The notes below the pieces were generated by a model, which did not search any database, was not told where the DNA came from, and was given only the letters and a program-made list of their open reading frames with translations. Shown one piece after another: positions 4,717-14,575 of a stretch of 63,165 bases of DNA. Within the stretch, counting starts at the first letter, position 1. Every line of letters begins with the position of its first letter. Origin of the DNA: an uncultured Candidatus Saccharibacteria bacterium (GTDB taxonomy: Bacteria > Patescibacteriota > Minisyncoccia > Phycocordibacterales > PALSA-1337); assembly GCA_964596595.1 (NCBI GenBank), contig CAZQUI010000004.1:1-63165 (forward strand), in the 5' to 3' direction. A program made the translations under genes and the position numbers.

Positions 4717-4790
4717 TCCGCCCTCTTGGATTCGAACCAAGGACCCCAGAGGTATAAGCTCTGTGCTCTAACCAACTGAGCTAAGGGCGG
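4717..4790 (-). tRNA. tRNA-Ile, anticodon TAT (UAU)
   Basis: Reverse complement: CCGCCCT/AGGGCGG acceptor with A73, D arm GCTCAGTTGGTTAGAGC, anticodon stem CAGAG/CTCTG with loop CT-TAT-AC (4754-4756), T arm CTTGG-TTCGAAT-CCAAG. Confidence 0.93.
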
Positions 4791-8585: not shown

Positions 8586-8630
8586 CAGCCAACAAAAAAG
8601 GCCAACGGAGCTGGCACTTTTTGTTGGCTG
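8586..8630 (-). terminator. hairpin immediately 3' of tmRNA (probable terminator)
   Basis: cagccaacaaaaa ... tttttgttggctg perfect inverted repeat. Confidence 0.7.
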
Positions 8631-8995
8631 TGGAGATGGCGGGAATCGAACCCGCGTGTAATCGAAACTCACTAAACGATTCTACAGTGGTAGTAGAAAT
8701 TGAAGTTTAATGAATGTGCTCAAAACGTCTACAAAACACACATTCACGATCTCTAAGTTTCGAAATAAATAGTGAGAAGTTATTTATTTCTACATCCGGG
8801 TTATGACATCCGCATCAAGGTATGGATCCCCTTGAACGAACGCGCACTACTTAAGCGAGTGCGAATGCAAAGTCCTTTGCTCCAAAATATGGAGAAACGG
8901 TTGATTTAGCATTTGTGGTTTCCGTCAGATTTACGAGATAACAGTGCTCGCACTGCACGAATAGGAGTCGACGATTATCGAAGCCGATCATCCCC
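8631..8995 (-). ncRNA. ssrA: tmRNA; tag peptide AKSTVSPYFGAKDFAFALA* (8851-8910)
   Basis: 5' GGGGATG pairs with 3' CATCTCC-A including G3:U70; T arm GCGGG-TTCGATT-CCCGC; internal tag ORF ending ALA*; adjacent to smpB. Confidence 0.96.
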
Positions 8996-11801: not shown

Positions 11802-11831
11802 AAAAAACCGAGAATTAGTTCTCGGTTTTTT
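11802..11831. terminator. bidirectional intrinsic terminator
   Basis: aaaaaaccgaga-attagt-tctcggtttttt between convergent rplT and the MBL gene. Confidence 0.85.
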
Positions 11832-13200
11832 ATTCTAATTCATAACCTTTTGATCTTTCAGGGACGATCGACTCTTTTCCAAATTCATCGTTGAGCCTTT
11901 GAGCCAAATGCATAGAAGCACCCGGTTCACCCATAACCACAAATATTTTTTTTAATTTATCTCCAGCAGTAGAAACAAATTCTACCAAATGATCACTATC
12001 TTTATGAGCAGAATAGCCATAGAGTGTTTCTATACGAGCTTCAATTTTTATTTCCCTACCTCGAATATTTACTTTTTTGGTACCATCAACCAGTTTACGT
12101 CCAAATGATCCAACTGACTGATAACCAACCAAGAGTATTGTACTGTTTGGGTCTGGAAGATATTTTTCTTCATGAGCGATAACTCGACCACCAACCGACA
12201 TTCCTGATCCAGCCAAAATAATTTTAGCTCCTTTAACATTTTCAATGCCCCGAGATTCATTGTTAGACACTGTGTATTTTAATTTTGGAAAATTAAACAC
12301 ATCATCACCTTTTTGTATTTGTTGTTTTACCGTGTCATTAAAAAGTCTGATGCTTTTACGATAGACTTCTGTTGCACCGATAGCCATTGGTGAATCTACA
12401 TAAACTGGCACCGACGGTATTATATTTTTTTCGACCATGTTATTTAATTCATATAATAAAACCTGAGTACGATCGATAGAAAAAGCAGGAATAATCAATG
12501 TACCACCACGATGTATGGTATCTTTTATAACTTTCTCCAAAAATTGAGTTCTCTGTTCTCTGGATTCATGATTACGATCCCCATAAACACTTTCTATAAC
12601 CAAGTAATCAACATCACCAATATTTTCAGAATCACGAAGAAGCGGCGCTGGTGAATTTCCTAAATCACCGGTAAAAAGAATTTTGGTGGATCCTGAAATT
12701 GTAACTTCAATCATTGCTGAACCAAGAATATGTCCAGCATCTTTAAAGATAACTGACAGATCATCATTTATAGGAAAACTTTGATTATAATCCACGGTCT
12801 TCCAGTTGTTAAAAACCACTTGAACATCTTCTATCCCATACAATGGTTCTACTCCTTCTTGTTTGGCCTCCATTGATAAAATAGATACCGCATCTATTAG
12901 TACTAACTCAGCTAATTGTCTAGTTTCTGGAGTTGAGTATAGTGTCCCTCTATATCCATCTTTAACTAACTTTGGTATCCGACCTACATGATCCAAGTGA
13001 GCATGAGTAATTATCAATGCGTCAATATTAGAGATTTCATAACCAAACGGTTGATGATTTTCTTCCATTGCAACGCGCTCACCTTGAACCAAACCACAAT
13101 CAATGAGAATGCGAGTATTATTTTTTGTTTGTAATAAAAAATTAGCACCCGTTACAGAACCAACTCCAGAATAAAATGTAACCGTTGCAGCAGATTTCAT
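11830..13200 (-). CDS. MBL-fold beta-CASP metallo-hydrolase (RNA-processing, Ysh1-like)
   Basis: LIDCG, ITHAHLDHVGR, AGHILGS, FTGDLG, ESVYG, YSAHKD. Confidence 0.92.
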   Translation of the reverse strand: MKSAATVTFYSGVGSVTGANFLLQTKNNTRILIDCGLVQGERVAMEENHQPFGYEISNIDALIITHAHLDHVGRIPKLVKDGYRGTLYSTPETRQLAELVLIDAVSILSMEAKQEGVEPLYGIEDVQVVFNNWKTVDYNQSFPINDDLSVIFKDAGHILGSAMIEVTISGSTKILFTGDLGNSPAPLLRDSENIGDVDYLVIESVYGDRNHESREQRTQFLEKVIKDTIHRGGTLIIPAFSIDRTQVLLYELNNMVEKNIIPSVPVYVDSPMAIGATEVYRKSIRLFNDTVKQQIQKGDDVFNFPKLKYTVSNNESRGIENVKGAKIILAGSGMSVGGRVIAHEEKYLPDPNSTILLVGYQSVGSFGRKLVDGTKKVNIRGREIKIEARIETLYGYSAHKDSDHLVEFVSTAGDKLKKIFVVMGEPGASMHLAQRLNDEFGKESIVPERSKGYELE

Positions 13201-13204
13201 CTTC

Positions 13205-13624
13205 TTATTTTATCTTGCCTTGAGTCAAATTCCTAACAAGAGAAGACCTGGTACTCTTTTTTAATTTTCCATAAATAAATCGAGCAATTGTTCCTCCTAT
13301 CATGTCGTTTATAAGATCAGCAATTGTATCGATATTATATTCAACAGTACCCAGTGGATGACCGGTTATATCATAGTAAAGTTCTATACCCTCCCAAATA
13401 AGACCAAAAACTAGCGTAAGAAAAATAACTTGTAAATAATTTATTTTTTTATTTGGAAAAAGAATATTTAAGCAAATACAAACAAAAAAACCAGTAGCCA
13501 CTCCACCTAGAATATGCATAAAAATATCATACCACCAAATCTGAACATACCAACCATCTAATCCAAATAAATTAAATCTATACGTCGCAGAAGCAGCAAC
13601 CAAAGCCAGGATGTATATGCGCAT
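13205..13624 (-). CDS. integral membrane protein with WYDIFMHILGG and WEGIE motifs (VanZ/DUF2238-like)
   Basis: Hydrophobic helices; start moved to ATG 13624 because TATAAT (13632-13637) lies 7 nt upstream. Confidence 0.7.
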   Translation of the reverse strand: MRIYILALVAASATYRFNLFGLDGWYVQIWWYDIFMHILGGVATGFFVCICLNILFPNKKINYLQVIFLTLVFGLIWEGIELYYDITGHPLGTVEYNIDTIADLINDMIGGTIARFIYGKLKKSTRSSLVRNLTQGKIK

Positions 13625-13658
13625 GAGCATGATTATAACGACAAATTGAAACAAAGAA

Positions 13659-13705
13659 AATACCCCGAACAAATCAGACCTTGAAAGGACGACTCGAGGG
13701 GTATT
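13659..13705 (-). terminator. intrinsic terminator after the candidate ncRNA
   Basis: AATACCCC...GGGGTATT stem followed by TTCTTTGTTT on the minus strand. Confidence 0.6.
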
Positions 13706-13710
13706 CTCTA

Positions 13711-13862
13711 TAGGTTTGCAGGAGTTGTAACCTGTTATTACAGGTGGGATACTTCAAGTCCAACTTCTAGACGGTGCTTGAAACGGACTAATCTGAACAG
13801 CATAACCTGTTCCTTAGAATCCCTTAAAATTGGTTTTATAGTTTTTTTACTCCTGCAACCTA
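13711..13862 (-). ncRNA. candidate structured ncRNA (6S-like architecture)
   Basis: Closing stem TAGGTTGCAGGAGT/ACTCCTGCAAACCTA, A-rich 5' single strand, 3' ACCTGT-AATA-ACAGGT hairpin, inner GGGAT/ATCCC and AGTCC/GGACT stems; no ORF. Confidence 0.5.
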
Positions 13863-13963
13863 CATATAATAATAAACCTAATAAATCCTAAAACAAGAGG
13901 ATAAAAATGTTCTGACATTTTTTTGCAGATTAATCAAAAATATTACAAAATATTTTTTAAAAA

Positions 13964-14575
13964 TTAACCTAAAATTCCGTTTATATCTACATCGTACAAC
14001 ATAGCATCAACCAAAAGTCTGTAATCAACTAACTCATTTTTATTAAACCAATATTCAATTTCTTTTTTAGCATCATCAATGTTTCCGGAAGCATGAACAA
14101 TATTACGAACTGCACGCACATCGTCATCGGCAAGTTTATATGAATCTAAAACAAAATCACCACGTATTGTACCCACATCCGACAATACTGGTTCAGTCGA
14201 TCCTGTAATCTTACGGACAACGGAGACAGCATGCGCTCCTTGCCACACCATGGCAATAACTGGTCCAGAAGCAAAATATTTTTTAAGTTTCATGAGGATC
14301 ATGTCAGACTGCTTTATTGGATCATCATGAGGTGGTGTAAGACCTTTATCACGGTAGGCTTGCAGATTTTTCTCACCAGTTTTTCTTTTCCATTCAGGAT
14401 CAAGCGTATAATGTGCTTCCACCATTTCCTGAGTAGGTGTGATCATTTTAATTCCAACCAGTTTCAATCCAACTCGTTCATAACGACGAATTATTTCTCC
14501 GATTAGACCTCTCTGTATACCATCGGGTTTTATTATAACTAACGTTTGTTCGTATTTTGGGTGTTTTATGCTCAT
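13964..14575 (-). CDS. ndk: nucleoside diphosphate kinase
   Basis: TLVIIKPDG, SGPVIAMVW, GTIRGDF, RNIVHAS. Confidence 0.96.
   Translation of the reverse strand: MSIKHPKYEQTLVIIKPDGIQRGLIGEIIRRYERVGLKLVGIKMITPTQEMVEAHYTLDPEWKRKTGEKNLQAYRDKGLTPPHDDPIKQSDMILMKLKKYFASGPVIAMVWQGAHAVSVVRKITGSTEPVLSDVGTIRGDFVLDSYKLADDDVRAVRNIVHASGNIDDAKKEIEYWFNKNELVDYRLLVDAMLYDVDINGILG

Follow-up and report, generated by a model that had tools for sequence, protein, structure and literature searches.

A conserved RNA encoded downstream of ndk in Parcubacteria is probably a divergent 6S RNA

Introduction

6S RNA, which is nearly universal among bacteria, regulates their transcription on a global scale. According to PMC9130861, it is a hairpin-like molecule of about 180 nt whose central bubble resembles an open promoter and which binds the RNA polymerase (RNAP) holoenzyme containing the primary sigma factor; it also templates the synthesis of product RNAs (pRNAs) of up to 20 nt, a process that rearranges the RNA and frees the enzyme. 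The same paper describes Ms1, an RNAP-binding RNA of 6S-like type that also has a central bubble, but which is about 300 nt long, carries extra terminal hairpins at its 5' and 3' sides, binds the core polymerase without sigma and is confined to Actinobacteria (PMC9130861). In this work we describe an RNA gene located at positions 13655-13862 (minus strand) of a low-GC (36%) genome fragment of 63,165 nt, contig CAZQUI010000004.1, hereafter referred to as the window. The gene, which lies directly downstream of ndk (nucleoside-diphosphate kinase), was assigned to a bacterium of the Parcubacteria/Paceibacterota, within the candidate phyla radiation (CPR), and most probably encodes a divergent, lineage-specific 6S RNA (ssrS).

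Divergent 6S RNAs have a precedent in 6S-Flavo (RF01685), a phylum-specific 6S RNA that is too divergent for the general Rfam 6S model (RF00013), was recognised by its architecture and synteny, and constitutes a separate family. A non-exhaustive literature search turned up no paper in which 6S RNA is connected with Parcubacteria, Saccharibacteria, Patescibacteria or the CPR, and nothing relevant was retrieved on noncoding RNA and covariation in Parcubacteria.

A structured RNA conserved downstream of ndk

The RNA occupies the 291-nt gap that separates ndk from the next open reading frame (ORF) on the minus strand. The minimum free energy of this strand at 13655-13862 was -74.1 kcal/mol, compared with -45.8 +/- 4.8 kcal/mol in 200 dinucleotide shuffles (z = -5.94), none of which folded as well, and the plus strand of the same segment folded less well (z = -3.86). 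Homologues were sought in 80 ndk loci, collected as one genome per species and designated here by L numbers, and a covariance model named R1 (141 positions, 40 pairs) was built from Parcubacteria sequences only. The parts of the RNA in the window are the following:

13655-13862, minus strand: predicted transcript, consisting of a 6S-like core and a terminator hairpin (fold z = -5.94; R1 match at 13712-13862, 120.2 bits, E = 5e-22).
13849-13862, minus strand: 5' strand of the closing stem P1, UAGGUUGCAGGAGU (fold; covariation).
13824-13848, minus strand: J1/2, the 5' strand of the central bubble, 25 nt unpaired, A/U-rich and nearly G-free (column counts).
13746-13823, minus strand: apical domain formed by P2, P3 and P4 (fold; covariation alignments).
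13823-13816 paired with 13753-13746, minus strand: P2, GGGAUUCU/AAGUAUCCC (GGGAU/AUCCC).
13812-13795, minus strand: P3 hairpin, GAACAG/CUGUUC, optional in the family.
13789-13757, minus strand: P4 hairpin, AGUCCG/UGGACU.
13740-13748, minus strand: most conserved element of the family, CCCACCUGU, equal to the top-conserved stretch of the Rfam 6S consensus (caCCCACCUgg).
13730-13745, minus strand: P5, ACCUGU-AAUA-ACAGGU, a hairpin on the 3' side of the bubble.
13711-13725, minus strand: 3' strand of P1, ACUCCUGCAAACCUA, with one bulged A (fold; covariation).
13649-13709, minus strand: intrinsic terminator, with hairpin GAGAAUACCCC...GGGGUAUUUUCU flanked by an A-tract and a U-tract and followed by UUUGUUU (fold).

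P1 comprises 14 bp and a single bulged A (13862-13849 paired with 13725-13711). P2 encloses the two hairpins P3 and P4, and P5 abuts P2. The 3' side of the bubble is made up of P5 plus 4-6 nt and the 5' side of about 25 unpaired nt. Two pyrimidines are conserved in J1/2, namely C22 (13841) and U25 (13838), the latter column holding a C or a U in 37 of 40 members. In P4 of the window copy, an insertion replaces the tip that is usual in the family (CGCC-UU-GGCG). The core measures about 150 nt and the terminator hairpin brings the total to about 200 nt; the 3' end of the transcript probably falls within the U-tract at 13649-13655. The features from which a structured RNA had been proposed in the original prediction were all present in the sequence, including a repeated segment that could be located as AACAGGTTA, found at 13811-13803 and 13736-13728. 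The 5' arm and loop of P3, GAACAGGU (13803-13811), repeat the 3' arm of P5, AACAGGU (13728-13736), as they also do in L002, L023 and L005, and P3 could compete for the ACCUGU arm of P5.

When the window RNA alone was used as nhmmer query, the RNA was recovered from 21 of the 80 ndk loci, in each case immediately 3' of ndk and in the same orientation. With R1, the numbers rose to 41 loci at E < 0.01 and about 52 at E < 1, with synteny and strand unchanged, and a single copy was detected in the 63-kb window. In MAFFT alignments of 17-18 copies, compensatory changes on both sides were observed in 23 of the 30-31 predicted pairs. In a model-fitted alignment of 40 members, 93.5% of the cells formed standard pairs, compared with 75.0% in shuffles and approximately 40% in slid controls; 33 of the 40 pairs changed on both sides, and the covariation score was 0.526 versus 0.208 in the control. 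None of 500 shuffles reached the observed value on any of these measures, and the independent MAFFT alignments agree with the model-fitted one. Indeed, every helix of the closing stem, large central bubble and apical stem arrangement is backed by covariation in the 40 sequences. In P1, 12 of 13 pairs showed changes on both sides, and the inner pairs of P5 also covary (G-C in 24, A-U in 9 and G-U in 6 members for one pair; U-A in 18 and G-C in 14 for the next). P3 is missing in about one third of the members. At the other extreme, the GGG/CCC pairs of P2 are nearly invariant, and the conservation of GGGA and ACCCACCU reaches at least 90% throughout the family. Since pairing is conserved through changes on both sides in both the model-fitted and the MAFFT alignments, and exceeds that of shuffles in the model-fitted one, the structure is real and under selection. 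Thus, the stems proposed for the window were found to be conserved, with compensatory changes, across 40 ndk-downstream homologues.

Relationship to 6S RNA

The only recurrent Rfam match of this family is 6S RNA. Twenty-eight members were searched with RF00013, whose gathering score is 46.4 bits, and permissive thresholds yielded sub-threshold matches in six of them, with coordinates and strand equal to those of the R1 match (L038, 28.2 bits; L069, 25.5; L009, 25.0; L012, 22.1; L025, 20.8; and L013, 19.8). No RF00013 match was detected elsewhere in approximately 124 kb, nor did any other Rfam family recur. Local RF00013 searches returned E values of 1.6e-3 and 2.8e-4, in alignments that span the A/U-rich bubble strand, GGGAG, the apical stem and CACCCACCUG.

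These matches cover the best conserved parts of both families. The top-conserved element of the Parcubacteria RNA, GGGA...GAGGnnnCCCACCUGU...ACAGG, equals the 6S consensus signature GGGag...caCCCACCUg...CaGG, and its GGGA and ACCCACCU segments align to positions written in upper case in the RF00013 consensus, that is, to the most conserved ones. Likewise, the signature flanking the bubble is common to canonical 6S RNAs, with GGGA on the 5' side and GAGG..ACCCACCUG...CAGG on the 3' side.

A motif probe against metagenomes, GAGGNNNCCCACCTGTN{4,5}ACAGG, retrieved at least 120 loci. Of 20 that were tested, 18 carried an RF00013 match covering the motif, with scores above 46.4 bits in 16 cases and of up to 104.8 bits. 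In the reverse direction, R1 aligned end to end, with 28-33 bits, to Rfam-valid 6S RNAs of about 160 nt (L140, L152, L110, L097 and others). Elements common to these RNAs and to the R1 family include GGGAgCC, a GCGCCUUGGCGC tip and GAGGgCACCCACCUGUa.AUAACAGG, and the agreement reaches beyond the motif used for preselection.

Several observations weigh against this assignment and have to be set beside it. The window copy gave no Rfam match at the gathering score when the whole window was scanned, and no 6S match at E <= 10 in searches with 601-nt and 176-nt segments. Its weak matches to other Rfam entries (ceN88, Twister-P5 and fragments of long noncoding RNAs) were discarded as noise, as none of them recurs in relatives. 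No family member reaches 46.4 bits, the highest score being 28.2. The scores of the R1 cross-matches are inflated, because the loci concerned had been preselected by an 18-nt family motif. R1 did not match E. coli ssrS (L081), which is uninformative because the motif does not occur in E. coli in its CCCACCU form. In its architecture the RNA differs from the textbook rod, with a closing stem of only 13-14 bp, an apical domain that is branched in two thirds of the members and a stable, covarying hairpin in the 3' strand of the bubble. Finally, RNAP binding and pRNA synthesis by the Parcubacteria RNA are properties that we infer entirely, and searches for RNA runs corresponding to the window locus, to L015 (from a peat metagenome-assembled genome, MAG) and to L003 (from a groundwater MAG) listed none.

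The same facts bear on a different explanation, in which the molecule would be a lineage-specific small RNA (sRNA) functionally unrelated to 6S, such as a base-pairing sRNA with an A-rich seed, a sponge or a protein scaffold, and its 6S-like motif would be convergent or a relic. The sub-threshold scores of the window copy and of all its relatives, the branched apical domain and the short closing stem would fit such an RNA. However, the six independent sub-threshold matches fall at this RNA and none falls elsewhere, a signature of about 25 nt and the order of the elements agree with those of validated 6S RNAs, and the single-stranded region, of low-complexity A/U sequence with only two conserved pyrimidines, would make a poor seed. 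We therefore consider an unrelated sRNA improbable. Other RNAs that were considered, namely signal recognition particle RNA, RNase P, Y RNA, guides of the tracrRNA/omega-RNA type and known ribozymes, were rejected for lack of Rfam matches, of associated genes and of their characteristic motifs (e.g., a GGAA tetraloop with symmetric loop, or a T-loop).

The 6S identity put forward in the original prediction is thus supported by the recurrent RF00013 matches, the shared signature, the motif probe (18 of 20 loci) and the R1 cross-matches. The Rfam search itself bears it out in part: six of 28 relatives match, below threshold, precisely at the RNA, whereas the window copy does not, and a clear match to another RNA family, which would have spoken for a different identity, did not appear. 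On these grounds the RNA would be a new member of the known, RF00013-type 6S family rather than a new class of RNA.

The RNA is flanked by a conserved promoter and terminator

The 60 nt upstream of each of the 40 copies were aligned by anchoring them on the first base of the closing stem. A consensus emerged that consists of CTTG(C/A)(A/C), a spacer of about 16-17 nt and TAnAAT ending 5-6 nt before the stem. The corresponding elements in the window are:

13891-13896, minus strand: -35-like hexamer, TTGTTT (family consensus CTTGCA or CTTGAC).
13869-13874, minus strand: -10 hexamer, TATTAT (family TAnAAT).

Given the conserved position of the -10 hexamer 5-6 nt before the stem, transcription is predicted to start at about 13861-13862, that is, at the first base pair of P1. 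The promoter call is based on cross-genome conservation; a simple promoter scan did not flag it, because the -35 element (TTGTTT/TTGCAG) fits the consensus at only three of six positions. On the other side of the RNA, P1 is followed in most of the 40 loci by an 8-nt purine-rich linker and then by a G+C-rich hairpin with a U-tract. A simple terminator scan flagged the equivalent terminators of L001 and L028 and missed that of the window, probably owing to a loop longer than the scan rule allows.

In nine loci (L052, L048, L043, L004, L046, L039, L062, L025 and L013), the -35 element (CTTGAC or CTAGAC) lies within the conserved C-terminal codons of ndk (..DVNLDGIL) and the -10 element after the stop codon; promoter and protein-coding constraints overlap at the end of ndk in those genomes. 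A further box, GTGTCGCAAC (ATGTCAGAAC in the window, 13909-13918, minus strand), was observed about 11-12 nt upstream of the -35 element in the window and in L001, L002, L015, L031, L061 and others. It belongs to loci with a spacer between ndk and the RNA, is missing from those whose promoter overlaps the coding end of ndk, and could be an operator or an UP-like element.

The promoter bears directly on the possibility that the RNA, devoid of any function of its own, is cut from the ndk mRNA as a structured 3' untranslated region (UTR) or a terminator module of that gene. Such a reading would account for its invariable location directly 3' of ndk and in the same orientation, at a distance from the stop codon that in some genomes is only about 20 nt. 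Nonetheless, a conserved -35/-10 pair is found directly upstream of the RNA, even embedded in the 3' coding end of ndk where the spacer is short; the covarying multi-helix structure of 140 nt, with invariant single-stranded nucleotides, goes far beyond what a terminator needs; and the RNA shows homology to 6S. The ndk 3' UTR reading, which we regard as very unlikely, was rejected on account of the conserved promoter.

Genes surrounding the RNA

The neighbours of the RNA in the window, together with the boundary marker of the downstream gene, are:

13964-14575, minus strand: ndk, the conserved upstream neighbour (Pfam PF00334, NDK, E = 1e-37).
13632-13637, minus strand: TATAAT of the downstream membrane-protein gene, a boundary marker outside the RNA, 7 nt before the ATG at 13624.
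11830-13200, minus strand: gene for a beta-CASP metallo-beta-lactamase ribonuclease, located after the small membrane-protein ORF.

In all covariance-model and nhmmer matches the RNA adjoins the 3' side of ndk on the same strand. The gene that follows it varies by locus, being either a small membrane protein with the motif YDIxMHxLGG or the beta-CASP ribonuclease, and the conserved order is ndk, RNA, an optional small membrane protein and beta-CASP ribonuclease. This synteny is not an artefact of collecting the loci through ndk, since three strong family members among the loci retrieved by the metagenome motif probe also have ndk upstream and membrane-protein or beta-CASP genes downstream.

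This conserved order, together with the terminator between the RNA and the next gene, might point to a cis-acting leader, either riboswitch or attenuator, of the membrane-protein and beta-CASP ribonuclease genes, for example in autoregulation by the ribonuclease. Against it, there is no overlap between the terminator and the 13-bp closing stem, and neither an alternative pairing between them nor an antiterminator pairing was evident. Moreover, the next gene is variable, and in most loci a TATAAT of its own lies 5-8 nt ahead of its ATG, which leaves no leader to be regulated; nor was any Rfam riboswitch matched. For these reasons a riboswitch or attenuating leader was rejected, and we see very little chance that it applies.

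The conserved promoter and terminator and the presence of a separate -10 element in front of the downstream genes instead indicate an independent transcript. On the strength of these sequence signals, the RNA is a conserved structured RNA that is independently promoted and terminated. The stand-alone transcript of about 200 nt anticipated in the original prediction is therefore supported, as the -35/-10 elements and the terminator are kept in about 40 genomes; the -10 element that it placed after the terminator for the downstream gene corresponds to the TATAAT at 13637-13632.

The window Ndk is 86% identical to the Ndk of 'Candidatus Nomurabacteria' and 'Parcubacteria bacterium C7867-002' MAGs, and the window locus was found in wastewater and activated-sludge DNA metagenomes only. 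The protein has 203 amino acids (aa), and the Pfam NDK domain, a model of 135 positions, was matched in two stretches; the extra length may correspond to an insertion or extension common to the Parcubacteria homologues (200-210 aa).

The membrane-protein ORF called mechanically (13205-13672, minus strand) begins at a TTG at 13672, within the terminator, and its homologues begin with MRIY or MKTY. Based on these N-termini and on the TATAAT located 7 nt upstream, the gene probably spans 13205-13624 (139 aa) and starts at the ATG at 13624. This configuration suggests a start of the leaderless type. The window protein, with the motif YDIFMHILGG, gave no Pfam match. TATAAT was also observed 5-8 nt before the ATG of the gene downstream of the RNA in most loci (L001-L080, L090, L106 and L128), suggesting that leaderless mRNAs are widespread in these Parcubacteria. 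Above threshold, Rfam models matched the window at four places only: a tmRNA (8628-8995, minus strand, 112.8 bits) and three tRNA genes (187-273, minus; 1196-1282, plus; and 4717-4790, minus).

A possible mode of action

If the RNA works as a 6S RNA, it would mimic an open promoter and fill the active-site cleft of the primary-sigma RNAP holoenzyme, sequestering the enzyme as growth slows. P1 would then mimic the downstream duplex and the P2-P4 domain the upstream one, with J1/2 as the bubble strand that serves as template. Upon return of nucleoside triphosphates, RNAP would copy the 5' strand of the bubble into a short pRNA extending into the closing stem, whose 5' strand would template the later part of the product; its synthesis would unzip P1, the 3' strand would refold and the polymerase would be freed.

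In E. coli, pRNA synthesis starts at U44, three nt past GAGCC. RF00013 aligns its 16-nt bubble strand to J1/2 in the relatives, and, in the alignment, the candidate start column of the Parcubacteria RNA lies three nt beyond the place that corresponds to GAGCC in the 6S model. The start would be at the C/U of a conserved CUA(C/U), that is, at U13838 in the window, and the pRNA would be purine-initiated and at most about 24 nt long. It would have to run off the 5' end of the RNA, because the closing stem has only 13-14 bp and begins at the first nucleotide of the transcript.

In canonical 6S RNAs a segment folds into a hairpin upon release, and the P5 arms ACCUG/CAGGU presumably correspond to it. 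Complementarity between J1/2 and the 3' arm of P5 with the linker after it was observed in several subgroups (CUAUACC:GGUAUGG, AAUUCC:GGGAUU), with RNAduplex energies of about -5 to -9 kcal/mol (L024, L052, L019, L048, L043, L046, L061, L005, L006, L062, L045, L012 and L025). As an alternative to P5, this pairing would restore the canonical bubble of 16 and 13 nt with an extended closing stem. Such models suggest two competing states of the RNA, which we offer as a lead and not as a result. The run-off of the pRNA, the preformed and covarying P5 and the complementarity seen in subgroups together raise the idea of a built-in two-state switch. That the RNA is a 'minimal' 6S variant with such a non-textbook mechanism, or that it has been re-purposed for a partner tied to the strictly conserved ndk and beta-CASP ribonuclease neighbourhood, appears rather unlikely to us, if somewhat less so than an unrelated sRNA.

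Significance

Identification of this RNA as 6S would mean that the standard Rfam model misses the version of a global regulator present in this lineage. It would fill an annotation gap in a very large and mostly uncultivated group of bacteria with tiny genomes, in which a growth-phase regulator would have been retained. About 50 sequences and a structure are now available as a basis for a dedicated covariance model. In addition, a compact natural variant with a short stem, a preformed hairpin in the 3' strand of the bubble and an optional branch could help to define the minimal needs of polymerase capture and pRNA-driven release. Locally, the gene model is corrected by moving the probable start of the membrane protein to the ATG at 13624.

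Comparison with known RNAs

The Parcubacteria RNA resembles canonical 6S RNAs (RF00013; E. coli ssrS, B. subtilis 6S-1) in its size class, with a core of about 150 nt and about 200 nt including the terminator, in its paired 5' and 3' ends, in a large central bubble whose 5' strand is A/U-rich and in an apical stem closed by G-C pairs. It also appears as a stand-alone gene, in single copy within the 63-kb window. Moreover, as in canonical 6S RNAs, the ACCUG/CAGGU segment of the 3' strand of the bubble can form a hairpin; in the E. coli RNA, pRNA-driven release is accompanied by the formation or extension of such a hairpin. In the Parcubacteria RNA, in contrast, this hairpin is stable and covarying, the closing stem is limited to 13-14 bp, the 5' strand of the bubble comprises about 25 nt as folded versus about 16 nt, and an extra hairpin, P3, branches off the apical stem in about two thirds of the members. 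The family stays at or below 28 bits against a threshold of 46.4, with the window copy undetected. Unlike that of E. coli, its gene neighbours ndk and the beta-CASP ribonuclease gene and not ygfA/fau.

The window RNA gave no match to the 6S-Flavo model (RF01685) at E <= 10, and, in contrast with 6S-Flavo, the Parcubacteria signature is that of RF00013. Ms1 was rejected as an identity since size, architecture and taxon all differ, and no sequence similarity to it was seen.

The family also resembles the short metagenomic 6S RNAs of L140, L152, L110 and L097, which share with the Parcubacteria RNA GGGAgCC, the GCGCCUUGGCGC tip with its CUUG loop, GAGGgCACCCACCUGUa.AUAACAGG and an A/U-rich bubble strand. 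Unlike it, they pass RF00013 (62-76 bits), lack the P3 branch and are not located beside ndk. In L140, an ORF of 707 aa upstream of the 6S RNA looks, in our own reading of the translation, like pheT, and a tblastn search of the window with the protein encoded upstream of this RNA gave no match. The closing stem of 6S RNAs of the L140 type runs on into UGAGCC:GGUCAA, overlapping the 3' arm of the hairpin, which is not the case in the Parcubacteria RNA. The RNAs of L140 (9589-9751), L152 (2774-2933, minus strand) and L110 (2607-2768) are Rfam-valid 6S RNAs of about 160 nt, lie in loci with a GC content of 48-55% and have a P5-like hairpin, and these three may be the nearest canonical relatives of the Parcubacteria family.

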